This document shows, one piece after another, positions 1,553 through 22,176 of a DNA stretch of 39,818 nt (position 1 is the stretch's first letter; each line of letters starts with the position of its first letter). The notes beneath the pieces are model-generated. The model ran no database searches and was not told where the DNA came from. It saw only the letters and a program-made list of their open reading frames with translations. A program made the translations under genes and the position numbers. Origin of the DNA: a virus (Duplodnaviria > Heunggongvirae > Uroviricota > Caudoviricetes); IMG/VR virus record IMGVR_UViG_2734482548_000013; one strand, written 5' to 3'.

Positions 1553-1741
1553 TCACGAGGACTGAAGTTTCTCGCAATTAAAATTTATCAGTTTTACTTT
1601 CTGCTCTCTGGAAACGCCTGCTTCTTTTTTACCTGAGAGCATTTTTTCGCATTCTGATTTCGTTAGTTTAGATTTTGAATATCTTGTCCAGTTAGTAGGA
1701 GTGCCACCTTCCTTTTCAATAGTGGCGGTAATTTTATACAT
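1553..1741 (-). CDS. ydaC: YdaC-like small protein (Rac prophage, function unknown)
   Basis: ORF in track; start placed at MYKITATIEKEGG with GGAGG SD upstream; synteny between lar and int. Confidence 0.55.
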   Translation of the reverse strand: MYKITATIEKEGGTPTNWTRYSKSKLTKSECEKMLSGKKEAGVSREQKVKLINFNCEKLQSS

Positions 1742-5487: not shown

Positions 5488-5763
5488 TCAGATTTCACCT
5501 TTTAATTTCATTGCAATTAGAGTTGCCAGAAATTCGGCTTTTTTTTCTGCGGGCAGATTCTTTCCGATATGCACCAGGCACATTTTTTTGACACCTTCAT
5601 CAAGTGTTTTTACGTTGCCTGATGGACCATCGATATCAACCACAGTGAATGGGGTTTCTTTATTTTCTGTTTTAATTACGTAGCCAATGCGCTTTCCTTC
5701 CAGATTCACCTCGTGAACAATGTCATCGGTAGTTACAACAGTGGCTTCATAATTGGTAATCAT
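5488..5763 (-). CDS. racC: RacC small protein
   Basis: Start at MITNYEATVVTTDD with GGAG SD; 91 aa; synteny recE-racC-ydaE-kilR. Confidence 0.8.
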   Translation of the reverse strand: MITNYEATVVTTDDIVHEVNLEGKRIGYVIKTENKETPFTVVDIDGPSGNVKTLDEGVKKMCLVHIGKNLPAEKKAEFLATLIAMKLKGEI

Positions 5764-5837
5764 GTTTTTCTCCTTAATTAAGGTTGAGCGAATACCTGCC
5801 ATTTCTGGCATAAATTCAGTTTCGAATAGTCAATTAA

Positions 5838-6008
5838 TTAAAGTTCATGTGCCATCTGGTCTTTTTCGGCACAAGCTTCACTGCAATATTTTCTCGGTTC
5901 GTCTTTTGATAAAATCCCGTGCATGAAGTGAAGCATTCTTTCAATAGCTTTGCTTTCTTCAACGTCTTTTTTGCAAAGGTGGTAAGCACATTTTATTTTC
6001 TTAGTCAT
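5838..6008 (-). CDS. ydaE: YdaE-like zinc-binding small protein (56 aa)
   Basis: Hand translation: [56 protein letters not shown]; Cys/His-rich; ATG overlaps the kilR stop (ATGA); below the 60-aa track cutoff. Confidence 0.7.
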   Translation of the reverse strand: MTKKIKCAYHLCKKDVEESKAIERMLHFMHGILSKDEPRKYCSEACAEKDQMAHEL

Positions 6009-6229
6009 CACCATGACTCCGCCTTTACAGGTAAACCATCACGACCGAGGAAGACTTTAATCATGCGGTCAGTAATGCATGTTTTTGTGGTCAGGTTACG
6101 AATATATAGTTTTCGCTTTTTAATATTGTTTGCCGAGGCAATATATGTCCGGCCTTCATGAAGAACATAATCGCCAGGAGTCACACACTGACGTGGTATT
6201 TCATCAGTTCCGAAGTGATGTGCAATCAT
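6008..6229 (-). CDS. kilR: KilR (FtsZ-inhibiting killing protein of Rac)
   Basis: Start at [15 protein letters not shown] (73 aa) with GGAG SD 6 nt upstream; synteny. Confidence 0.85.
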
Positions 6230-6670
6230 AATTATCTCCATTTTTACAAATGAACTTTGTTGATGCGGTGCCTGGTGCCTCCAGGTGACTGCAACCAGTT
6301 AACAATTACAGTCGGCTTTCCCACCCAAACCAATAAGGACTAACATGACTTTTAACTGTGCCACGTGCGCTTAGCCGCATTCACCGCATCACAAAATTCA
6401 CTTTAAAAAGGGCGGACATCAGCCGAACTTCAAGAAAAAAACTGATGCCGCCAGGACTACACACAGCAATGTCGTTATTTACAACCGGAGGCGCACTCCC
6501 ACCATTTAAATTTAACAGACAAGACCGACTCTTTATGGATATCGGAAATGCGCCTTCGTGTTGTGCCCGGTTTTATTTCACCACCTCCGGGCTTCGGTGG
6601 TCTCGGCTATACCCCTACAGCGAGAGCTTGTGTTAACATTTCAATACCCTTACAGTTGAGAGTTATTGAT

Positions 6671-7159
6671 ATGTTGGATGTATTTACTCCATTGTTGAAA
6701 CTTTTTGCTAACGAGCCACTCGAAATACTTATGTATACGATTATCATTTTTGGTCTCACTCTCTGGCTGATACCGAAAGAGTTTACTGTCGCATTCAATG
6801 CTTATACTGAAATACCTTGGCTCTTTCAGATTATCGTTTTTGCCTTTTCTTTCGTGGTCGCCATTTCCTTCTCAAGATTGCGAGCACATATTCAAAAGCA
6901 TTATTCATTACTACCAGAGCAACGAGTATTGCTTCGTTTATCTGAGAAAGAAATCGCTGTATTTAAAGATTTCCTTAAAACAGGAAATCTTATTATCACT
7001 TCTCCTTGCCGTAACCCGGTTATGAAAAAATTAGAACGGAAGGGCATCATTCAACATCAGAGTGATAGCGCAAACTGTTCTTATTATCTCGTCACCGAAA
7101 AATACTCCCATTTTATGAAGTTATTCTGGAACAGCAGGAGTAGACGTTTTAATCGTTAG
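6671..7159 (+). CDS. sieB: SieB superinfection exclusion protein
   Basis: Start at MLDVFTPLLKLFANEPLEILMYTIIIFGLTLWL; N-terminal transmembrane segments; 162 aa; AT-rich like known sieB. Confidence 0.85.
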   Translation: MLDVFTPLLKLFANEPLEILMYTIIIFGLTLWLIPKEFTVAFNAYTEIPWLFQIIVFAFSFVVAISFSRLRAHIQKHYSLLPEQRVLLRLSEKEIAVFKDFLKTGNLIITSPCRNPVMKKLERKGIIQHQSDSANCSYYLVTEKYSHFMKLFWNSRSRRFNR

Positions 7160-7311
7160 CTTACTGTGTGCTTCTCCAACCATCGGCGCGCACCAGTTTC
7201 GGTTTTAAATGTTTTGCTTTTGGTATACGTCATGGCAGTGAACGTTCCATCCTGGTTGGGGAACACGCCGCACACCAGGGATTCGTTGTTGCCGAGGTCG
7301 ATTTTTTGCAT
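7156..7311 (-). CDS. ydaF: YdaF-like small protein (51 aa)
   Basis: Hand translation MQKIDLGNNESLVCGVFPNQDGTFTAMTYTKSKTFKTETGARRWLEKHTVS; overlaps the sieB 3' end convergently by 4 nt. Confidence 0.6.
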   Translation of the reverse strand: MQKIDLGNNESLVCGVFPNQDGTFTAMTYTKSKTFKTETGARRWLEKHTVS

Positions 7312-7321
7312 TTTGCGAATC

Positions 7322-7456
7322 TCACATCTTGTTGCTGTGTATAGCGACTTCTGCCTGCCAGAGATCCCAGTCGTTGCTGCGTAAAGCCTGCACAGCCTGG
7401 TTGTAAGTGATACCGCAACAATCCATCAAATACTGAACTACTTCGTAATGCACCAT
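7322..7456 (-). CDS. ydaG: YdaG-like small protein (44 aa)
   Basis: Internal start MVHYEVVQYLMDCCGITYNQAVQALRSNDWDLWQAEVAIHSNKM within track ORF 7322..7504. Confidence 0.6.
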   Translation of the reverse strand: MVHYEVVQYLMDCCGITYNQAVQALRSNDWDLWQAEVAIHSNKM

Positions 7457-7630
7457 CTTATCTCTCCCCTTAACGCCGGGTGGCGGAACTGAAACCTGCT
7501 GCACTGCAAAATCTGAACCCTGCCGTCATGTTCATACGCCTCGGGCTGGCTACTTAACCCCTGACCACTGCCTGGTAACTCGAAGTATTGCCCTGCGTTC
7601 TGTGGGGCGGGGTGGGTTGGTAGGTATATA

Positions 7631-7671
7631 ATGTACTTTGTGTTCATTGATGTAAAGTACTATAAGTACAT
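7631..7671. promoter_or_regulatory. Candidate operator cluster (OL-like): ATGTACTTT ... AAAGTAC tat AAGTACAT inverted repeats downstream of racR
   Basis: Seen directly: inverted and direct copies of the TGTACT core within about 40 bp, in the region that must hold the leftward early promoter. Confidence 0.4.
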
Positions 7672-7746
7672 TTTGTGTGTAAAAAAATGAGATGGGATAA
7701 AGTGAAGCACAAACCCGGAGGGGGACGCTACCGGATTTATGCTGGT

Positions 7747-8166
7747 TTAAGAGGCTTTTTGTTTTTTCTTTCGTGCTAGCTCTTCGTAAATTGCATTGTA
7801 CTTCTGTTTTTTCTCCTCAAGAGTTTTTAAAAGTTCATCTGTCTCACTGTCAGGGAGCTCGTCCAGAAGGTCAATGATGATTTTTTGTCTTGGATTTAAC
7901 TCCTGATAGAAACGTACCTGTCCACTTTCTTCTGTATCCTCTCCCAAAAGATAGGTTGGTGTTGTTCCAATGAGTGTTGCTAATTCCCTTAATTTCTCTC
8001 GGCGAGGAATTGTTTCGCCATTAAACCATTTGCTAACCGCTTTTGGTGTTAATTTCATTCGACGGGCAATTTCTGCCTGCCTTCCATGTTGTTCATAACC
8101 AGCGTTTTCACAGGCTAGCGCAAGCCTACTGGCGAACTCTTTACGCGCTTTATCTTCATGAACCAT
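7747..8166 (-). CDS. racR: RacR prophage repressor (CI-like HTH)
   Basis: HTH segment QAEIARRMKLTPKAVSKWFNGETIP; divergent from the ydaS/ydaT operon; start ambiguous between ATG at 8166 and GTG at 8184. Confidence 0.8.
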   Translation of the reverse strand: MVHEDKARKEFASRLALACENAGYEQHGRQAEIARRMKLTPKAVSKWFNGETIPRREKLRELATLIGTTPTYLLGEDTEESGQVRFYQELNPRQKIIIDLLDELPDSETDELLKTLEEKKQKYNAIYEELARKKKQKAS

Positions 8167-8190
8167 AAGTTCAATGATATTCACTCTTGA

Positions 8191-8221
8191 ATGTACTGTC
8201 AGTTCTGTTATAGCATGTACT
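8191..8221. promoter_or_regulatory. Candidate operator pair (OR-like): two direct ATGTACT copies 24 bp apart in the racR-ydaS divergent intergenic region
   Basis: ATGTACT at about 8191..8197 and 8215..8221, the same core as the cluster at 7631..7671; placement mirrors the CI-flanking operator layout of lambdoid phages. Confidence 0.4.
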
Positions 8222-8245
8222 CAAAGTTCACATTGTGAGGGTGAT

Positions 8246-8500
8246 ATGAACCAGAAAACACTTGAAGATGTAATCAAAACTGTTCGCGTTTCTGTTGTGG
8301 CCGACGTTTGTGGTGTCAGCCAAAGAGCAATCTACAAATGGATGGATAACGGAAAATTGCCTCGCACAGAATATACCGGCGAAACAAATTACGCTGAAAA
8401 AATCGCTCATGCATCAAACGGATTATTTTCTGCTGATGTAATTTTAACTATTGGCAGAAATAAAACTACTACGAAAAAGCTGATGGGAGTTGATTCATGA
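8246..8500 (+). CDS. ydaS: YdaS (Cro-like HTH protein)
   Basis: Start at MNQKTLEDVIKTV with GAGGGTG SD; HTH VADVCGVSQRAIYKWMDNGKLP; first gene of the rightward operon. Confidence 0.7.
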   Translation: MNQKTLEDVIKTVRVSVVADVCGVSQRAIYKWMDNGKLPRTEYTGETNYAEKIAHASNGLFSADVILTIGRNKTTTKKLMGVDS

Positions 8501-11758: not shown

Positions 11759-11914
11759 ACGTTACTAGATCAAAGAGCATTAGTTCATATGTAAATTGAC
11801 ATTTTTCTGGCACAGGGGAGAGCTAGCGTGGTTGTCCGCTTTGTGCCAATAGCGGACATTGCTGGCTCATGGTATGTTAGTTTAAGGAGGCAGGTTATGC
11901 CCTGTATTTCGCTG

Positions 11915-11923
11915 TGGTATAAT
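11915..11923 (+). promoter_or_regulatory. Extended -10 element TGgTATAAT, candidate promoter for the low-GC cassette
   Basis: Exact TATAAT with upstream TG seen in sequence about 34 nt before the GTG start and 18 nt before the AAGGGAG SD. Confidence 0.4.
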
Positions 11924-11956
11924 AGTTGCGCAATTGATACAAGGGAGCGTTACATC

Positions 11957-12919
11957 GTGAAAATTGTTTTCGAGGTTAATGGAAAGAAAGTTCCACTAAA
12001 ATCTTTAAAATACATAAGCAAAAAAGATCAACTCGAAGTAATGAAAAACTGGTTCTTTGAAAACTTTGAAGATCCGGCAAATGCTTGTCCGTATGAAAGT
12101 AGAGAAGGTGGCTATGCTTACATATATGGCGGGCCGTATGATGCGAGCGAAGAACTACAATCCATCTTCGGTCAATATGTTAAATCTGAGTATATTGAGG
12201 AATTAGTAGATGAATTACAAACACAATGTTTTGACTGGTCTGGAAACTCAAATAATATAGATGATTGGTACGATGATGATATCTACGACGCTGTAACGTC
12301 TTCCGGTAATCCGTATTTAAAATTCATTGATAATATCGATAAAATAAAAAAACTTGCAAAAGATAAAACTGAACAACAGCAAAAAAACCACTTGCTTAGT
12401 TTGCTCTACACGAATGTTATTACAGCTTTGGAAACGCTTTATGTTGAGCTATTCATTAATTCTATAGAGAAAGATGATGTCTACATAGCCAATTGTATAG
12501 AAAAAGGTAAGACTGAATTTAAAGTAAGCAAAGATATTGCTGCGTTGCCTTTCAAGGGTGAACCCATCGAGAAAATTAGGGGAGAGCTAATCAGGTCAAT
12601 CAAGGAACACTTGATCAGTGCAAGCTGGCATAGCACTAAAAAGGTAATCGACCGCTATGAAGCTACATTCGATATAAAAGTACAAAAAGACTGTCCGATA
12701 GAAGCTATTGAATTGGCAACCCTCAATCGAAATCACTTAGTGCATCGTGGTGGAAAGGATAAAGAAGGGAACCTCGTAGTGATTACAGACCAGGATCTTG
12801 AAACGCTGATTGAAAATGCATCGAACCTGGCAATTATGCTCTACAACAGTTTAAATGTAGCAACGAATAAAACCACCATTTTGCAACCAGATGACAAACC
12901 GTTCATTCATGAATTTTAA
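11957..12919 (+). CDS. Unknown protein A of the low-GC two-gene cassette (about 320 aa); family not recognised; possible HEPN-like R-x4-H (NRNHLVHRGG)
   Basis: Long ORF in strongly AT-rich DNA (14 of 60 G+C on the line starting 12301); GTG start at 11957 after an AAGGGAG SD; alternative ATG at 11897 after AAGGAGG; the track start 11828 is probably an upstream read-through. Confidence 0.6.
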   Translation: MKIVFEVNGKKVPLKSLKYISKKDQLEVMKNWFFENFEDPANACPYESREGGYAYIYGGPYDASEELQSIFGQYVKSEYIEELVDELQTQCFDWSGNSNNIDDWYDDDIYDAVTSSGNPYLKFIDNIDKIKKLAKDKTEQQQKNHLLSLLYTNVITALETLYVELFINSIEKDDVYIANCIEKGKTEFKVSKDIAALPFKGEPIEKIRGELIRSIKEHLISASWHSTKKVIDRYEATFDIKVQKDCPIEAIELATLNRNHLVHRGGKDKEGNLVVITDQDLETLIENASNLAIMLYNSLNVATNKTTILQPDDKPFIHEF

Positions 12920-12934
12920 TAGCGCAGGTCATAC

Positions 12935-13936
12935 ATGGATATTCGCACACGAAAGACAAAATTTTTAGAGTCGTTAGATTCAACTGAAGTGATACGCAAA
13001 GCAGTAAGTCTCGCTATAGATTGCATTATTGATAATCATAATAGTAATGAAGATACCCCCTTAGTTATTACCAGCTATGATGATCTCTGTAGAATCCAGG
13101 TGCTAAATTATGTACAGGAGTTTTGCGAAGCTGCATTCCCTGATATGGATGAATATTACTTTAGTCCTAACATACTTCGCATCAACGGCAAGACTAGTGA
13201 AGAAGCTTGTATTAACTTAATTAAACTCTTAAGAAGTACAAAAGGCATGCTATTCTGGTCCGATGCCCCATCGTGGTTCGCTAGCCTCCCCGACGGATTA
13301 TTCCATGTTGTTAACATTGATCAAAAAATCGTTACTCGCGGCCTTAATAAGAAAAACTCTAAGCCGACAATAATCAATAAAGATTACAGTGTAGATACAC
13401 TACTATCAGAGCTATTTTTGAATGGCGCACACATGGAGCAACCCAACGTACACAACGTTTCTGAGGGAAACATGAAGTTCTATGATGAATGCCATGCTGG
13501 ATTAATCAGACCAATACCCGCTCCAATAGGCGCGTCATACGATGAAGAGATCACAATTAATTCTCCAGATTGGCAAAAGCTCGCGTGTGTAGCTTTACGC
13601 CGCTATCAGTCGAAGGAATGTCATGACGGAATGCAATGGGATACAACCGATCATGGTTGGACTGATGTAATCGCGTATCCATTCGTCGAAGAAATACAAT
13701 CAATGGATAATAGTGGTTATCGACAATGTTTAGTTGGGCTGGTCACAATAAACAATTCAAATGCAAATTCTCCGTACCTATCTACCGTTTGGATACATCC
13801 ATTTTATCGCAGGAGAGGGTTATTAAGTAAGTTATGGCCAAAATTACAAGAGTTATATGGAAGTAACTTCGAAATTGAGCGACCTAATGAAAATATGAAA
13901 GCATTTCTGAAAAGTGCGAAACACGCAGATTACTAA
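12935..13936 (+). CDS. Unknown protein B of the low-GC cassette (333 aa) with a C-terminal GNAT-like acyltransferase motif
   Basis: ATG 15 nt after the gene A stop (operon); C-terminal segment CLVGLVTINNS...VWIHPFYRRRGLLSKLWPKLQEL resembles GNAT motif A; AT-rich (18 of 60 G+C on the line starting 13021). Confidence 0.65.
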   Translation: MDIRTRKTKFLESLDSTEVIRKAVSLAIDCIIDNHNSNEDTPLVITSYDDLCRIQVLNYVQEFCEAAFPDMDEYYFSPNILRINGKTSEEACINLIKLLRSTKGMLFWSDAPSWFASLPDGLFHVVNIDQKIVTRGLNKKNSKPTIINKDYSVDTLLSELFLNGAHMEQPNVHNVSEGNMKFYDECHAGLIRPIPAPIGASYDEEITINSPDWQKLACVALRRYQSKECHDGMQWDTTDHGWTDVIAYPFVEEIQSMDNSGYRQCLVGLVTINNSNANSPYLSTVWIHPFYRRRGLLSKLWPKLQELYGSNFEIERPNENMKAFLKSAKHADY

Positions 13937-14556: not shown

Positions 14557-14895
14557 CTATTTTTTGGTGCTATAGACTTTTTCGCCCGAAAAGTCTGGAG
14601 CGACCCAAAAGTTAATATTAAACTGAGCATCATCGCTTAGTTCAACACGGTGCCAGTATTGTGGTGGGCTTGTTGCAAAAGCGCCAGCATTAATGACTAC
14701 TTTTATCTCCGGTTCAGTAGCATTCTCATCAGTAAAACCATAATATGTTACAGTGCCTTCCATTACGCACAACTGCCCAAAAACACCTGCTGCTGTATTA
14801 TGATGTGTTAATAACGCTGAAGGTACGTTCTCTTTTGTGAAGAACGGAGTTGAGCGTTTGATTACCCAATCTTTAGGAATTCTCTTGTGTGTCAT
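14557..14895 (-). CDS. YeaR-like DUF1971 protein
   Basis: Start at MTHKRIPKDWVIKRSTPFFTKENVP with GGAGGAGG SD; resemblance to E. coli YeaR (RSTPFW..., FNIDFFV motifs) recalled from memory; opposite strand to the flanking phage genes. Confidence 0.6.
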   Translation of the reverse strand: MTHKRIPKDWVIKRSTPFFTKENVPSALLTHHNTAAGVFGQLCVMEGTVTYYGFTDENATEPEIKVVINAGAFATSPPQYWHRVELSDDAQFNINFWVAPDFSGEKVYSTKK

Positions 14896-15708
14896 AACCA
14901 CCTCCTCCAAAACATGCATTAAAAATGCATCTTTTGGAGGGTTATGTCAAGCTGTTATGAAACACATAATTGATATGTTGATTAGAGGAGAAGATAGAAT
15001 AAATATGGTTGTTTTTCGTATAACTATTTGTTTTACTTTTAGTTTATGCATTCTGTGTGTTAGGAATAAGTTATTAAAGTTTAATCAAAAAATCTCGATG
15101 TAGTCCACATAGATTACTGTTACTGAACCTTATTGTGTGTATTAGTTGTGTTCTGAAATTTCAGCTTAATTATTTATGATGTATTTTTTAACGATAAATA
15201 TTTTCCCAGGATACCTTTACTGTGTATATAAATAAATTATATACGCATAAATAATGTAAAGGCGTCCTTTTAGATATATCTTATCAAATGTTAATGACTT
15301 GAGTGGGAAATATGATTCCAGCAACTTATCATGTGGCTACTTTATAAAAATAATGCCCATATAAAACAACAAGCGAAAAGGATTACGGATAAAAAAGGAG
15401 CGAGATGTGCGAACTTGTTATTTTCCATGTTTAACCACCTTAAATAATTGATGATGACGGGATGATTGCATCTGTAATGCTTTTATTGAAATGTTATGAT
15501 AAAAAAGAACTTTTGCATAACATTAAAATGTAATTTATCTAATCGTTTTTAATAATAAGTGTCGTATTTCTATCCTTGTACCAGCTATTTGATATGTAGT
15601 GTTTGTTCATGCTATGTGGGGCTTTACACCATAGCCAGTTTATTTATACTTTATTCGTCAGCCTGAACAACTGGCATCTGCTGCGCTGCGCCATCGAGAG
15701 ATTGAGAA

Positions 15709-16308: not shown

Positions 16309-16598
16309 TGGTGAATTTACGTAAAGCGGCTAAAGGCCAGATGTGCCAGATCAGAATCCCTGGCTACTGCAATCACAATCCCGAAACCTCTGTGCTGGCG
16401 CATTACAGGCTGGCGGGGACGTGCGGAACAGCGACAAAACCACATGATATGCAGGCGGCGATAGCCTGTAGCTCATGCCACGATCTAATCGACGGGCGGG
16501 TAAAAACCAGCGATTACACCAAAGAAGAATTGCGCCTGATGCATGCTGAAGGGGTTTTTCGCACACAAGAAATCTGGAGAAAGAAAGGTCATTTATGA
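16308..16598 (+). CDS. YbcO-like DUF1364 putative nuclease (Cys/His-rich)
   Basis: 96 aa with CQIRIPGYCNHNPETSVLAHYRLAG...ACSSCHDLID metal-binding pattern; ATG overlaps the upstream stop. Confidence 0.55.
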   Translation: MVNLRKAAKGQMCQIRIPGYCNHNPETSVLAHYRLAGTCGTATKPHDMQAAIACSSCHDLIDGRVKTSDYTKEELRLMHAEGVFRTQEIWRKKGHL

Positions 16599-17137
16599 TT
16601 TACCCAACGAATACAGGAAAAAGCGGAGAACACCTTCGCCTCACCACGCTGGAAAGTGTCTGGATTCAGGGAAAACTACGTATGTGGGGGCGCTGGTCGT
16701 ATATTGGCGGTGGCAGGTCAGGGAATATGTTCAATCAGTTGTTGGCATCCAAAAAACTGACGAAAACAGCCATTAATGAAGCCCTGCGCAGAATGAAAAA
16801 AGCGGGAATAGAGAAAGCTGAGCTGGAAGCGTTTTTGCGAGAGATGATCAACGGCAAGCAAAAGAGCTGGCTGGCGCATTGTACTGATGCAGAGGCGTTA
16901 TGTATTGATCGAGTCATAAGTGAGGTGCTGGCAGAGCATCCAGGATTGATTTGCATTCTCCGGCAACGCTATGAAGGGCGGGGGATGACTAAGCGCAAAA
17001 TGGCTGAATTGCTAAATGATGCACACCCAGAGTGGTGTTTTAGCACATGCGAAAAACGGATTGCTAATTGGTTAGCTGTTGCTGAGTATGCCCTATATAT
17101 TCCCATGCGTGAATCATTTGCTGAGAAAATGGCTTGA
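16595..17137 (+). CDS. Putative late-gene antiterminator (Q-like), assigned mainly by position
   Basis: 180-aa ORF that is the last gene before a strong intrinsic terminator and the lysis module; ATG overlaps the upstream stop. Confidence 0.45.
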   Translation: MIYPTNTGKSGEHLRLTTLESVWIQGKLRMWGRWSYIGGGRSGNMFNQLLASKKLTKTAINEALRRMKKAGIEKAELEAFLREMINGKQKSWLAHCTDAEALCIDRVISEVLAEHPGLICILRQRYEGRGMTKRKMAELLNDAHPEWCFSTCEKRIANWLAVAEYALYIPMRESFAEKMA

Positions 17138-17246: not shown

Positions 17247-17564
17247 GTCAGGAAAGCAGGGGAGAATGCTGCTAGTTGGGCAACTGGTCTTTCTGCTCCA
17301 AATTATAACAGAGACCAGTTATAGTTTCGGTGCTGTGTTTTTTTTACAATATTGTGATAACACATTGCTGGCGGGAGTTTTGATATTTCTTGGCAGGGGC
17401 TGATGATGCGTTATCCTGATGTCGTCAACTCATATAAAATGAGATGAGAGATCATTGCAGGGTGGTTTGTAATTCGCTGTTTAGCGGGACAATATGTTGT
17501 CTGATACAAGACACCCGACGCCTCAGATTACTATAATAAAGACGAAGCATCCTTTGTATTGACC

Positions 17565-17590
17565 AACCGCCTGTTTAGGCGGTTCTTTTT
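17565..17590 (+). terminator. Second intrinsic terminator
   Basis: AACCGCCT gttt AGGCGGTT hairpin followed by TTCTTTTT. Confidence 0.6.
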
Positions 17591-18122
17591 GGGCTGGTTT
17601 ATTGTATGCCAAATGATTATTAAAAAGGTTGTGTTAATAACAAGATCCGAAATAATATGCCTGCATATTTTTATCTTGCTTATATTCTGCATATTGTGCA
17701 TAGCAGGCTCATCCCTGCAATCAAAACTGTATGATGAGTATTTTTTGTTTTCCTTTTTTCCAGTCATCTGATGATGACCTGCTTCTTTTTAATCCGGATC
17801 GACATCAGTTTTTTAAGATAATTCCTGCGAGTTATATGCATAAATGCCACAAACTCCGCATTTTATGTGGTTGGGAGTTGCCGGGCGCGCAGTGAGTTTG
17901 CTAAGAAAACTCCTGCATGGTGAATCCCCCTGTGCGGTGGGGTGATACCATTAACCTTTTCTGTCGCCGACAGGTATCACGAACATTTTGTTCACCGGGA
18001 GGCACCCGGCACCATGCACTTCAATAGATTCTCTCCACATTATGGATATTCTTTCAGAATATCCCACGCAGACTTTGTGTAAATGTTAACAAATGTGCGT
18101 TTTATTTGATCTGATTCGCTGT

Positions 18123-18152
18123 TTGAGCGTCCAAAACAACGGTATATATAAT
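18123..18152 (+). promoter_or_regulatory. Candidate sigma-70 promoter for the lipoprotein moron
   Basis: TTGAGC, 18-nt spacer, TATAAT, about 30 nt upstream of the ATG at 18182. Confidence 0.45.
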
Positions 18153-18181
18153 CCTTTACTATATGACATATGTGAGGAAAA

Positions 18182-18610
18182 ATGGGTTTTCGTAGCGCAT
18201 CAATTCTTACGTTGATTATTAGTGGGATTATTATCGGGTGCACTGATGCTGTATCGACAAATTATCATGACCGTACATCATATTACTCCGATAAAGCAAT
18301 AGAGACACAGTATGTGAGTTCATCTGAACGTACTTCTGATGTTAGTGAGGATATCCGTCTGTATGCCCATCAAATCAAGAGCGCCATCGAAAAACAGTTC
18401 GGGGATGCGAGTAAGTATTCAGGAAAAGAGTGTACACTGAGAATGCATATGGCCCCGAATGGCCTTCTACTGGAGGTTAAAAGAGAAAGTGGAGACCTCG
18501 ATTTATGTCGTGAAGCGATGAATGCGATAAAGAATGCTGATATACCTGCCCCCCCTTCGCCGGAAGTATATAAAGTATTTCAAAATGGGGTGCTGGATTT
18601 TAAACCCTGA
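18182..18610 (+). CDS. Lipoprotein with a TolA domain III-like C-terminus
   Basis: Signal peptide plus lipobox IIGC; C-terminal segment YAHQIKSAIEKQFGDASKYSGKECTLRMHMAPNGLLLEVKRESGDLDLCREAMNAIKNADIPAPPSPEVYKVFQNGVLDFKP aligns closely with the TolA C-terminus (...CTLRIKLAPDGMLLDIKPEGGDPALC...AVYEVFKNAPLDFKP) as remembered. Confidence 0.75.
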   Translation: MGFRSASILTLIISGIIIGCTDAVSTNYHDRTSYYSDKAIETQYVSSSERTSDVSEDIRLYAHQIKSAIEKQFGDASKYSGKECTLRMHMAPNGLLLEVKRESGDLDLCREAMNAIKNADIPAPPSPEVYKVFQNGVLDFKP

Positions 18611-18760
18611 TATTTATTGTTTTGTAATAAACGGTTTCGGCTTAGGTTTGTTCTGACACAGCTACGGCACTGAGCTAAATTTAGCGGATAGTCAGCTCTG
18701 AGCCAGTGGCGGACGTAACAACTACTATTGCTGAGATTTTAATGGATTGAGGAGCAAGAA

Positions 18761-19156
18761 GTGGGATTAAAGAAAATCGTTATGTTGACTTTTTGGGTCG
18801 GTTTTGTTGCGGGATGCACACCTTTACACCCTTCAGATTGCCACAAAACTACTGCTACAGGTAGTTGCAGTTCAGGACGCTGGGATGATCAGGATGAATG
18901 GGGGGCGCAAGCGCGGGGAATCAGAGCTGCAATTAATGCCAAACTTGATGAGCCGCATAACTGGAAAGGGAAAAAATGCAGGTTGCATATGGAATTCTCT
19001 CAGGATGGCACGGCGTTAAAAATATCTACCAGTAACGGTGATAAAGCCTATTGCGAAGCGATAAAGTCCGCAGCTCATAAAGCCAAATTTCCGGCCTTCA
19101 ACAATCCGGAAGTCTACAGAGATTTTCAGAAATCTGGCTTTGACATGCGAGGTTAG
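18761..19156 (+). CDS. Second, more divergent TolA domain III-like lipoprotein (paralog)
   Basis: GTG start after GAGGAG SD; lipobox VAGC; C-terminus KKCRLHMEFSQDGTALKISTSNGDKAYCEAIKSAAHKAKFPAFNNPEVYRDFQKSGFDMRG shares the two-Cys and PEVY pattern with the upstream gene. Confidence 0.6.
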   Translation: MGLKKIVMLTFWVGFVAGCTPLHPSDCHKTTATGSCSSGRWDDQDEWGAQARGIRAAINAKLDEPHNWKGKKCRLHMEFSQDGTALKISTSNGDKAYCEAIKSAAHKAKFPAFNNPEVYRDFQKSGFDMRG

Positions 19157-19281
19157 CTCTTCAATTACTATATCTCATTCATAGCAAACTGACAGATTTG
19201 ATGATGTTCTATATACGAAACCTGTGATGTCAAGTCTGAGCTAATACAAATAAACATAATATCAGAGAAATACATTTTATT

Positions 19282-19304
19282 AGCTCGCTACGGCGAGCTT
19301 TTTA
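19282..19304 (+). terminator. Intrinsic terminator closing the lipoprotein moron
   Basis: AGCTCGC tacg GCGAGCT hairpin followed by TTTTTAT. Confidence 0.65.
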
Positions 19305-19407
19305 TATTGCATCGTCTCCAGCATATATATCAATTAAGGCTCTGATTGATGTGTCTGAAAGCCTACACATAATAACTATGCCATCCGTTCCGTGCGGAGG
19401 TGAGGCT

Positions 19408-19623
19408 ATGAAATCCATGGACAAAATTTCAACAGGCATTGCCTACGGCACCTCCGCAGGCAGTGCTGGCTACTGGTTTTTACAGTTGCTCGATAGAGTA
19501 ACTCCGTCACAGTGGGCTGCAATCGGTGTGCTGGGTAGTCTGGTATTTGGCCTGCTGACGTACCTGACAAACCTTTATTTCAAGATTAAAGAAGATAAGC
19601 GCAAGGCTGCGAGAGGTGAATAA
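19408..19623 (+). CDS. Phage 21-type class II holin (pinholin S21-like) with dual-start motif
   Basis: [26 protein letters not shown]...; Met1-Lys-Ser-Met4 dual start; two transmembrane segments; GGAGGTGAGG SD. Confidence 0.85.
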
Positions 19624-20120
19624 TGCCTCCATCATTACGAAAAGTCGTTGCTGCTGCTATTGGTGGCGGAGCAATTGCTATAGCATCAGTGTTAATCACT
19701 GGCCCAAGTGGTAACGATGGTCTGGAAGGTGTCAGCTACATACCATACAAAGATATTGTTGGTGTATGGACTGTATGTCACGGGCATACAGGAAAAGACA
19801 TCATGCTCGGTAAAACGTATACCAAAGCAGAATGCAAAACACTCTTGAATAAAGACCTTGCCACTGTCGCCAGACAAATTAACCCGTACATCAAAGTCGA
19901 TATACCGGAAACAACGCGCGGCGCTCTTTACTCATTCGTTTACAACGTGGGTGCTGGCAATTTCAGAACATCGACGCTTCTTCGCAAAATAAACCAGGGC
20001 GATATCAAAGGCGCATGTGATCAGCTACGTCGCTGGACATATGCTGGCGGTAAGCAATGGAAAGGTCTCATGACTCGTCGTGAGATTGAGCGTGAAATCT
20101 GTTTGTGGGGTCAGCAATGA
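19623..20120 (+). CDS. SAR endolysin (phage 21 R-like lysozyme)
   Basis: N-terminal Gly/Ala-rich signal-anchor-release segment [18 protein letters not shown] followed by a lysozyme domain; starts at the holin stop. Confidence 0.9.
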
Positions 20121-20581
20121 ACAGAGTAACCGCGATTATCTCCGCTCTGGTTATCTGCATCATCGTCTGCCTGTCATGGGCTGTTAATCATTACCGTGAT
20201 AACGCCATTACCTACAAAGCCCAGCGCGACAAAAATGCCAGAGAACTGAAGCTGGCGAACGCGGCAATTACTGACATGCAGATGCGTCAGCGTGATGTTG
20301 CTGCGCTCGATGCAAAATACACGAAGGAGTTAGCTGATGCGAAAGCTGAAAATGATGCTCTGCGTGATGATGTTGCCGCTGGTCGTCGTCGGTTGCACAT
20401 CAAAGCAGTCTGTCAGTCAGTGCGTGAAGCCACCACCGCCTCCGGCGTGGATAATGCAGCCTCCCCCCGACTGGCAGACACCGCTGAACGGGATTATTTC
20501 ACCCTCCGGGAACGACTGGTAATGATGCAGGCCCAACTTGAAGGTGCTCAGCAATACATAACCGAGCAGTGTTTAAAGTAA
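20117..20581 (+). CDS. Rz i-spanin
   Basis: N-terminal transmembrane segment then coiled-coil periplasmic domain; start overlaps the endolysin stop. Confidence 0.8.
20337..20522 (+). CDS. Rz1 o-spanin lipoprotein, embedded in the +1 frame of Rz
   Basis: Lipobox VVGC and proline-rich tract [15 protein letters not shown]; entirely nested within Rz. Confidence 0.75.
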
Positions 20582-20718
20582 AATCTTAACTACAATATGA
20601 TTCATTTTGATGATTGTTTCATAAGGAACAGTGAAGTAAGATCTAAGAGGAGTTAAATTTTATACAGTATAATCATAATATTGCAGCAAGGTGGTTATAA
20701 TTGAAAGAATATTTAGAT

Positions 20719-22176
20719 ATGAATACATCTCATGTAAGAGTTGTTACTCATATGTGTGGGTTCCTGGTTTGGCTCTATAGTCTTTCAATGTTGCCACCAA
20801 TGGTTGTAGCATTGTTTTATAAAGAAAAAAGCCTGTTCGTTTTCTTTATAACTTTCGTTATATTTTTTTGCATTGGTGGCGGAGCGTGGTATACAACTAA
20901 GAAATCTGGCATTCAATTACGTACCCGTGATGGGTTTATTATAATTGTAATGTTTTGGATTTTGTTTTCTGTTATTAGTGCATTCCCTTTATGGATTGAC
21001 TCAGAACTTAATTTAACGTTCATTGATGCTCTGTTTGAAGGGGTTTCTGGAATAACAACAACAGGAGCAACTGTAATTGATGATGTTAGTTCATTACCTC
21101 GGGCATATTTGTACTATCGGTCACAGTTAAATTTTATAGGTGGTTTAGGAGTTATTGTTCTGGCGGTTGCAGTATTGCCATTATTGGGTATTGGTGGTGC
21201 AAAGCTTTATCAGTCAGAAATGCCGGGGCCATTTAAGGATGACAAACTCACTCCCCGCCTGGCCGATACGTCACGGACACTGTGGATAACTTATTCTTTA
21301 TTAGGTATTGCTTGTATTGTCTGTTATAGACTTGCAGGAATGCCTTTGTTTGATGCTATTTGTCACGGGATTTCCACAGTTTCGCTTGGTGGTTTCTCAA
21401 CTCATAGCGAGAGTATCGGATATTTTAATAACTATTTGGTTGAGCTGGTGGCTGGTTCTTTTTCCCTGCTATCGGCTTTCAACTTCACTCTTTGGTATAT
21501 TGTTATTAGCAGAAAAACGATAAAACCTTTAATCAGAGATATTGAACTTCGTTTCTTTCTGTTAATAGCCTTAGGGGTGATCATTGTTACCTCTTTCCAG
21601 GTCTGGCATATAGGTATGTATGACTTGCATGGAAGTTTTATTCATTCGTTTTTTCTTGCCAGCTCCATGCTCACTGATAATGGTTTAGCTACGCAGGATT
21701 ATGCAAACTGGCCCACGCACACGATAGTGTTTTTGCTGTTGTCAAGTTTCTTTGGGGGATGTATAGGTTCAACCTGTGGTGGAATTAAGTCACTTCGATT
21801 TCTTATACTTTTCAAACAAAGCAAACACGAGATAAATCAGCTTTCTCATCCCAGAGCGTTGTTGAGTGTAAATGTAGGAGGGAAGATAGTTACAGATCGT
21901 GTAATGAGGTCTGTATGGAGTTTCTTTTTTCTTTATACTCTCTTCACGGTGTTTTTTATACTGGTGTTAAATGGTATGGGATATGATTTTCTTACATCAT
22001 TTGCAACAGTGGCTGCATGTATTAATAATATGGGATTAGGTTTTGGGGCTACTGCATCGTCATTCGGAGTGCTTAATGACATTGCAAAATATTTAATGTG
22101 CATAGCTATGATTCTTGGTCGCCTTGAAATTTATCCTGTTATTATATTGTTTTCAGGTTTTTTTTGGCGCTCCTAA
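20719..22176 (+). CDS. trkG: TrkG potassium uptake protein (Rac cargo gene)
   Basis: 485-aa polytopic membrane protein starting MNTSHVRVVTHMCGFLVWLYS; AT-rich; sits between the lysis and ParB-like genes as in Rac. Confidence 0.9.
   Translation: MNTSHVRVVTHMCGFLVWLYSLSMLPPMVVALFYKEKSLFVFFITFVIFFCIGGGAWYTTKKSGIQLRTRDGFIIIVMFWILFSVISAFPLWIDSELNLTFIDALFEGVSGITTTGATVIDDVSSLPRAYLYYRSQLNFIGGLGVIVLAVAVLPLLGIGGAKLYQSEMPGPFKDDKLTPRLADTSRTLWITYSLLGIACIVCYRLAGMPLFDAICHGISTVSLGGFSTHSESIGYFNNYLVELVAGSFSLLSAFNFTLWYIVISRKTIKPLIRDIELRFFLLIALGVIIVTSFQVWHIGMYDLHGSFIHSFFLASSMLTDNGLATQDYANWPTHTIVFLLLSSFFGGCIGSTCGGIKSLRFLILFKQSKHEINQLSHPRALLSVNVGGKIVTDRVMRSVWSFFFLYTLFTVFFILVLNGMGYDFLTSFATVAACINNMGLGFGATASSFGVLNDIAKYLMCIAMILGRLEIYPVIILFSGFFWRS

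Follow-up and report, generated by a model that had tools for sequence, protein, structure and literature searches.

Two mobile lipoproteins with a TolA domain III fold in a Rac-type prophage: possible decoys for Tol-dependent import

The Caudoviricetes record IMGVR_UViG_2734482548_000013, analysed over its whole length of 39,818 nucleotides (the window), carries two adjacent genes, here called A and B, each of which encodes a small protein with a lipoprotein signal and a C-terminal domain of the kind known from domain III of TolA (TolAIII). The pair is placed between a Q-like late antiterminator gene (16595-17137, + strand; phrog_753, E 2e-79; DUF1133 family protein in RefSeq) and the genes for holin (essD), endolysin (rrrD) and Rz with embedded Rz1 (19408-20581, + strand), as a preliminary description made from the letters alone had placed it. 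The 1.5 kb around the two genes and their flanking signals (the cassette) is 100% identical to a Rac-type prophage that lies beside ttcA in Escherichia coli SE11 and many other strains, and the window is collinear with the SE11 prophage from intR on, except for one swapped cargo segment.

Two lipoproteins that share one domain with TolA

Gene A (18182-18610, + strand) starts with an ATG 4 nt downstream of a Shine-Dalgarno sequence, GAGG (18174-18177, + strand), and encodes 142 amino acids, which divide into a signal peptide (residues 1-19), a disordered tether of about 30 residues rich in S, T and Y (residues 21-50), and a copy of TolA domain III (residues 51-142). Its N-terminus reads MGFRSASILTLIISGIIIG-C20-TD, with the lipobox IIGC, Cys20 as the predicted lipidation site, and Thr at position +2. 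Gene B (18761-19156, + strand) encodes 131 amino acids from a GTG start, 6 nt downstream of the Shine-Dalgarno sequence GAGGAG (18749-18754, + strand), and comprises a signal peptide (residues 1-18), a two-cysteine motif (residues 20-42), and a TolA domain III-like fold (residues 43-131). The N-terminus of B reads MGLKKIVMLTFWVGFVAG-C19-TP, with the lipobox VAGC, Cys19 as the predicted lipidation site, and again Thr at +2. The GTG at 18761, with its GAGGAG ribosome-binding site, is the best reading of the B start; the RefSeq start, ATG 18782, loses the Lys-Lys n-region of the signal peptide.

Both proteins have a positive n-region, a hydrophobic h-region, a lipobox of the form [LVI][ASTVI][GAS]C and no Asp at +2, and are thus the two lipoproteins, with the IIGC and VAGC lipoboxes, that the preliminary description had recognised. 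Under the Lol rule of E. coli, an Asp at +2 keeps a lipoprotein in the inner membrane. Because Thr rather than Asp occupies this position in A and B, both are predicted to be sorted to the outer membrane.

The Pfam model TolA_C (PF06519, gathering threshold 25 bits) matched A with 82.6 bits (E 2.4e-23) and B with 54.6 bits (E 1.3e-14), and A also scored on the TonB_2 model. A phmmer search against the PDB paired residues 55-142 of A with residues 334-421 of E. coli TolA without gaps (E 5e-28), and residues 51-129 of B with TolA 341-419 (E 5e-9), such that residue i of A corresponds to residue i+279 of TolA, and residue i of B to residue i+290. Over the domain, A is identical to E. coli TolA at 52/88 positions (59%) and B at 27/88 (31%). 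The resemblance to the TolA C-terminus, first noticed in the preliminary description, is significant for both proteins by the PF06519 scores, and the alignment and structure modelling proposed there as a check gave the same answer. The AlphaFold2 (AF2) model of A has a pLDDT above 90 at residues 51-140 and below 50 at residues 18-50, and that of B is confident (pLDDT above 90 in the domain) from about residue 43, with residues 1-42 disordered. With Foldseek, the A model superposed on 2x9a_B with a root-mean-square deviation (rmsd) of 0.6 Å over 88 residues (TM 0.96), and the B model on 3qdp with an rmsd of 1.1 Å over 86 residues (TM 0.92). Both predicted models show the α/β fold with a three-stranded sheet and helices known from TolAIII. 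By alignment, cysteines C84 and C109 of A and C73 and C98 of B correspond to the TolA C363/C388 pair, the columns of which are invariant.

Compared with E. coli TolA domain III (about residues 325-421; PDB 1S62, 3QDP/3QDR, 1TOL and 2X9A), A and B thus have the same fold and the same Cys363-Cys388 pair, but they differ from the whole TolA protein in three respects. First, domain I, the inner-membrane anchor that couples TolA to TolQR, and the long helical domain II are both absent, and a lipoprotein signal with a short tether, a linker of 20-30 residues, takes their place. Second, A and B are predicted to hang from the outer membrane, whereas TolA reaches out from the inner membrane; given this tether and the lack of TolQR coupling, they would be unable to transmit proton-motive force. 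Third, they are encoded not in the tolQRA-tolB-pal operon but in a prophage late region. A and B therefore carry the Pfam TolA_C domain but are not TolA.

The similarity to the TolA domain is already visible in annotation. The RefSeq name of A is "tolA: cell envelope integrity protein TolA", yet of the TolA domains the protein has domain III alone. This label is an over-annotation, since A has neither domain I nor domain II, lies outside the tol-pal operon, and reaches only 107.8 bits on NF007065, the cut-off of which is 213 bits (B, 53.7 bits). On TIGR02794 (cut-off 59.45), A passes on score with 75.6, yet only model positions 265-362 are matched, and B stays below with 47.2. The RefSeq entries touched by these naming and start issues are WP_001348108 and WP_000506936. 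PHROG 5772 lists the family as of unknown function, and a full-text literature search that combined TolA with prophage, lipoprotein, decoy, colicin, klebicin and moron, and that also used the family identifiers, found no characterisation of A or B, in line with the preliminary description, which had known of no characterised function for such proteins.

A and B are 28% identical to each other over the domain, and neither is closer to its neighbour than to TolA. The suggestion in the preliminary description that B is a diverged paralog of A did not hold: in addition to this low identity, B has its own family across genera and occurs in solo copies and on pO157. Tandem duplication as the origin of the pair was ruled out by the 28% identity together with the separate distributions of the two genes.

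The mature N-terminus of B (18815-18890, residues 19-43) reads C-[AT]PLHPSxCHKTTATGxCSSGRWDDQDEW, is near-invariant over at least 12 genera, and holds two extra cysteines. AF2 confidence is low for this motif, which may form a second functional epitope or a disulfide-closed loop. Its SG.W....WG pattern was considered as a colicin TolB box and set aside: the model places the second Trp within helix α1, and the spacing of the Trp residues differs from that in ColE9.

Transcription signals, mobility and selection

The preliminary description had presented the pair as a moron running from its own promoter to its own terminator. A sigma-70 promoter-like site, TTGAGC-18-TATAAT, is indeed present at 18123-18152 (+ strand), 30 nt upstream of the start of gene A; it was found by a consensus scan with 10/12 matches and is unchanged in phage mEp460. 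Across the region, 11 promoter-like matches were found, where 6.2±2.7 were expected, which is no significant enrichment, and since such matches are not rare here the site stands as a consensus match only. The terminator was confirmed as a clean intrinsic one at 19282-19304 (+ strand): a 7-bp GC-rich hairpin (19282-19299; dG -13 kcal/mol, z -4.46 against shuffled sequences) is followed by a U tract reading UUUUUAUAUU. The interval between A and B holds no structured terminator (z = 0.06) and only a weak promoter-like match (9/12).

The two signals thus flank the pair as described, and the same cassette occurs behind a different Q in mEp460, while A alone occupies the stx slot of an Stx-like prophage and B alone is found on pO157, all of which speaks for modularity. 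However, a search for empty sites with a joined-flank query returned no contiguous copy in 5,426 E. coli genomes, and the difference in GC content between the cassette (0.37-0.48) and the flanking phage genes (0.44-0.52) is small. The status of the A+B cassette as a classic moron is accordingly only partly shown. In its layout, it resembles lambda Bor, Lom and stx, which are likewise small late-operon units with their own promoter-like site and terminator, with the A variant sitting in the exact stx slot; the proteins and functions of these units are unrelated to those of A and B.

Gene A was found by blastn in "distant" mode in 898 of the 5,426 complete E. coli genomes (17%), almost always on the chromosome, and its family is restricted to prophages of E. 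coli and Shigella. A variant with 80% identity, with another signal peptide and another upstream region, stands alone in the stx slot mentioned above, where the gene order is Q, methylase, tRNA-Ile/Arg, gene, nanS-p. Between both A versions, the ratio of nonsynonymous to synonymous substitution rates (dN/dS) amounts to 0.29 for the domain and to 0.40 for the signal peptide and linker together. Among the genuine TolA proteins of a representative set, the closest to A is E. coli TolA (59%, against at most 56% for the others), and a homologue search with the A domain alone returned A-family proteins only. A recent capture of host tolA was considered as the origin of A and rejected, because blastn with A matches 898 genomes and misses the host tolA that is present in all 5,426.

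Gene B is distributed more widely. It was found in 1,269 of the 5,426 complete E. coli genomes (23%), at 826 chromosomal and 536 plasmid places, and its family comprises 368 clusters that are 78-89% identical across genera. Citrobacter, Enterobacter, Serratia, Klebsiella, Raoultella, Kluyvera, Leclercia, Lelliottia, Buttiauxella, Yokenella and Pantoea all have it. Moving as a single gene, B has reached at least 12 genera of Enterobacteriaceae. In Enterobacter kobei it stands solo between gpx and ridA, in Serratia it adjoins a GmrSD/HEPN pair, and no common synteny and no conserved partner gene were found among B loci across genera. Homology between hosts covers only the open reading frame and about 35 nt upstream (18724-19158). 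The orthologue on pO157 and related plasmids is 92% identical in the domain. dN/dS of B is 0.03-0.13 in the domain and 0.01-0.08 in the first 30 mature residues. Two 8-kb contigs assigned to metagenome-assembled genomes of Lachnospiraceae and Treponemataceae (L019 and L020) encode a pO157-type B protein with 1 difference in 143 residues; they are most likely mis-binned enterobacterial plasmid contigs.

These data bear on the view that A and B are functionless hitch-hikers, i.e., decaying fragments of a captured tolA in a mosaic late region. Many shortened copies do exist in databases, and no phenotype is known, as would be expected of such fragments. However, both frames are intact and have newly acquired lipoprotein signals, dN/dS is well below 1, about 780 genomes have copies at 99% identity or more, B has been kept over at least 12 genera at unrelated loci, and host tolA is not matched by blastn with A, all of which makes this view very improbable.

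When 1.84 billion representative proteins were searched with a profile, 596 matched, and of the best 150 matches, which were examined, 96 are short proteins (at most 170 amino acids). A lipobox is present in at least 59 of these 96 and is never followed by Asp at +2, which again predicts sorting to the outer membrane; ordinary signal peptides were seen in a few. As a group, the short relatives conserve the cysteine pair and the L-D-F-K strand no less than full-length TolA proteins. With tblastn, TolA-C matches were obtained on 1,300 plasmid records. One example is a TolA-C lipoprotein with the lipobox ITAC on a Klebsiella pneumoniae IncF plasmid. Another is found in K. pneumoniae NZ_CP028788.2 (L003 5908-6641), a 10-kb ColE1-type plasmid, on which the gene for a TolA-C lipoprotein (lipobox LTAC) overlaps a gene for a secreted TonB-C domain protein, and this pair adjoins tRNase klebicin, immunity and lysis genes. 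The full arrangement of klebicin, TolA-C and TonB-C was seen in 238 records, mostly of one plasmid lineage. Sister klebicin plasmids have the Exc2 lipoprotein or the CloDF13 proteins K and L instead. Orphan TolA-III lipoproteins are thus a broad class on prophages, plasmids and chromosomes, and the term prophage-borne, applied in the preliminary description, is right for the cassette but too narrow for the class.

A possible decoy for Tol-dependent import and its alternatives

TolAIII is bound by the cell's own Tol proteins as well as by parasites that use it for entry. CpoB, which the preliminary description had listed among the proteins docking there, is reported to bind TolA domain II. Strand β3 of TolA (L417-D418-F419-K420) takes the TolB N-terminus, colicin N and g3p-N1 of filamentous phages by β-strand addition, and the substitutions D418P or K420P abolish these bindings and give a complete tol phenotype (PMC4339652; PMC7391070). 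The colicin A (ColA) site is a different one, formed by β2 (residues 375-380) together with K368, K379 and K396, where the cation-pi contact between K368 and ColA Tyr58 is the most important (PMC3365938). The dissociation constants also differ, with 1 µM for ColN-TolA versus 40 µM for TolB-TolA (PMC4339652).

In A, strand β3 is unchanged (L138-D139-F140-K141-P142, equal to TolA 417-421), and helix α1 is nearly that of TolA itself (QIKSAIE). Most of the colicin A site is retained as well: on β2, LLDIKP has become LLEVKR, and K379 and K396 are kept. Together with the predicted location of the two proteins, this suggests that A and B could act as dead-end TolAIII decoys against Tol-dependent colicins and filamentous phages, more so for A than for B, a reading to which we give a little less than even credence.

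Under this decoy reading, the lysogen would make A and B from the cassette promoter, with larger amounts late through read-through by Q-modified polymerase. Tethered to the periplasmic face of the outer membrane, both would display TolAIII uncoupled from the TolQR motor, at the very place where the translocation domains of group A colicins and g3p-N1 of filamentous phages would first emerge. The decoy would capture these ligands ahead of the real TolA, by the same β-strand addition, and import would stall, since the decoy could not transmit force. The lysogen would become tolerant yet keep its own Tol-Pal function, because the affinity of TolAIII for the parasites (about 1 µM) is much higher than that for TolB (about 40 µM), and these affinities make selectivity for parasites plausible. 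B, which has diverged at both known sites, probably has a different, conserved target. Purifying selection on both genes, with dN/dS of 0.29 for the A domain and 0.03-0.13 for B, also counts for the decoy reading. The carriers of these genes and their relatives, among them Rac-type, mEp460 and Stx-like prophages, pO157, IncF plasmids of Klebsiella and a klebicin Col plasmid, would profit from protection of their host.

Several known systems resemble what is proposed for A and B. Export of the TolA C-terminal domain to the periplasm reportedly gave colicin-tolerant, leaky cells in work by Levengood-Freyermuth et al. in 1993, and a periplasmic TonB C-domain is said to have been dominant-negative in that of Howard et al. 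in 2001; in such constructs, the free periplasmic domain reportedly competes with the energised full-length protein. In contrast to these engineered domains, which were reportedly soluble, overproduced laboratory constructs, A and B are natural, lipid-anchored and mobile. Llp of phage T5 is a phage outer-membrane lipoprotein that inactivates FhuA. Similarly, Cor of φ80, N15 and HK022 is a lipoprotein moron whose block of FhuA confers protection from FhuA-dependent phages and from colicin M (PMC3594210). Like Cor and Llp, which are made in the lysogen or the infected cell, A and B are small phage-carried lipoproteins that would close an entry route common to phages and colicins; unlike those two, which target the outer-membrane receptor itself, they are proposed to mimic a periplasmic hub downstream of the receptor and so to cover a whole import pathway, and they have no sequence relationship to either. 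Another close parallel is provided by periplasmic g3p-N1/pIII, which sequesters TolA and confers resistance to colicin A and phage (PMC10424213). This exclusion uses the same interaction between TolAIII and its ligand and is a mirror image of the one proposed here, in that pIII is the excess ligand, whereas A and B would be the excess receptor domain; pIII saturates TolA and thereby causes tol-like defects. The decoy idea is plausible in that it fits both the conserved binding strands of A and these dominant-negative precedents.

However, several observations weigh against the decoy reading. In A, the key residue K368, the partner of ColA Tyr58, is replaced by His. In B, all three ColA-contacting lysines (K368, K379 and K396) are exchanged, for Glu, Ser and His, respectively, and β3 reads F-D-M-R-G, with FDMR as a conservative variant of LDFK; given these exchanges, B may be unable to bind the known TolA ligands. 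The strong conservation of B and its solo sites in Enterobacter and Serratia would suit an endogenous partner rather than an arms race with toxins. The promoter-like site upstream of A, from which the lysogen would express the pair, is no more than a match to the consensus, and the region has many of these. A, B and the Klebsiella plasmid homologue had no match in PADLOC-DB v2, which has no model for them, so that they are not recognised defence genes. Finally, a decoy that also bound TolB could bring a costly tol phenotype upon its host.

In the main rival explanation, the TolAIII copies would modulate Tol-Pal: they would bind the TolB N-terminus, partly uncouple TolB-Pal from TolA and loosen the outer membrane. 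The outcome would be vesiculation of the lysogen, or disruption of the outer membrane and virion release in the late phase, and on Col plasmids bacteriocin release. The position of the cassette within the late operon, immediately ahead of the holin, endolysin and spanin genes, agrees with such a role, as does the fact that a related gene adjoins a bacteriocin and lysis operon; the TolB-binding strand of A is identical to that of TolA, a block of the TolA-TolB interaction yields the full leaky tol phenotype (PMC4339652), and the conservation of B would suit a conserved host target such as TolB. On the other hand, the outer membrane is already handled by the spanins, the cassette has a promoter-like site of its own and is set off from the lysis genes by a terminator, and the solo chromosomal copies of B lie far from any lysis or release function. 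Moreover, a tol-like cell should pay for its bile and detergent sensitivity in the gut, but the genes are carried by 17-23% of E. coli genomes, and the affinity of TolB for TolA is weak (40 µM). We regard Tol-Pal modulation as unlikely, though not negligible.

Still another explanation, which would concern mainly B, is that the domain is a β-augmentation module that has been re-targeted to clamp some other periplasmic peptide, e.g., the TonB box or a periplasmic turn of an outer-membrane receptor. The receptor would then be inactivated in cis, as FhuA is by Cor or Llp, with exclusion of receptor-specific phages and bacteriocins. B has moved away from TolA at both mapped sites and is nevertheless highly constrained, with its invariant two-cysteine motif, and A scores on the TonB_2 model, as noted above. 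The C-domains of TolA and TonB share their fold and binding mode (PMC7391070), and Cor offers a precedent (PMC3594210). Opposed to this, there is no candidate target and no conserved neighbour gene that would suggest a partner, and A is too close to TolAIII to need re-targeting; we regard re-targeting as a distinctly unlikely explanation.

Returning to the decoy reading, it may be extended, tentatively and with clear reservation, to the whole class: orphan TolA-III lipoproteins, joined on some plasmids by their TonB-C partners, might be a widespread, so far unrecognised class of mobile "import-hub decoys" that, tethered to the outer membrane, copy the domain on which colicins, klebicins and filamentous phages depend and so confer pathway-wide, toxin-independent tolerance. 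If so, import-hub decoys would spread horizontally, A and B together would cover different ligands, and decoys could partly account for the high natural insensitivity of E. coli isolates to colicins, and also for the retention of the gene on pO157. A decoy of this kind would be new as a natural, mobile, lipid-anchored mimic of an import hub. It would provide mobile tolerance to a whole class of bacteriocins and to pilus-dependent filamentous phages through imitation of a host hub, with no need for receptor loss or specific immunity proteins. This would bear on competition in the gut, where A is carried by 17% and B by 23% of complete E. coli genomes, B also lies on pO157 and relatives are found on many Klebsiella plasmids; on the use of colicins, klebicins and engineered bacteriocins as therapeutics; and on phage display and Ff biology. 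Should the decoy reading prove wrong, the strong constraint on a TolA-III lipoprotein that has travelled through at least 12 enterobacterial genera would still point to an unknown Tol-Pal interaction.

Other features of the window

Directly upstream of the cassette lies an STnc100-like small RNA (sRNA) or leader element (17885-18071, + strand; Rfam RF02076, 86.6 bits, gathering score 47). The phage mEp460_ev081 shares window positions 17894-19624 at 96.9% identity, and the element thus accompanies the cassette into phage mEp460. The Stx-like prophage L014 has at least 8 copies of pieces of STnc100 (17894-18018) in its late region (5495-8376); the element may serve as a repeated leader or mark a boundary at which late-region cargo recombines. 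Further upstream, at 17508-17584 (+ strand), a promoter-like AAGACA-18-TATAAT (10/12 matches) is followed after 28 nt by a terminator-like hairpin (17565-17584); this layout downstream of the Q-like gene is what would be expected for a late promoter PR' with a short leader and tR'.

Directly after the spanin genes, trkG (20701-22176, + strand) has a GC content of 0.32-0.41, against about 0.5 in the lysis genes, and is a second foreign cargo piece of the late region. Another two-gene cargo, at 11828-13936 (+ strand), encodes proteins of 363 amino acids (with a weak match to a HEPN/RES N-terminal domain) and 333 amino acids (with a weak GNAT match), neither of which had a PADLOC match; in the Rac prophage of SE11, the same slot holds a DUF262, TPR and IS3 segment instead. 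This looks like a variable slot that could accommodate systems for defence or of a toxin-like kind. The early-right region also contains, on the opposite strand (14557-14919, - strand), a gene for a DUF1971 protein (PF09313, E 2.6e-26). The RalA antitoxin sRNA of the RalR/RalA type I toxin-antitoxin system, as expected for Rac, was detected at 1557-1735 (+ strand) with 225 bits.

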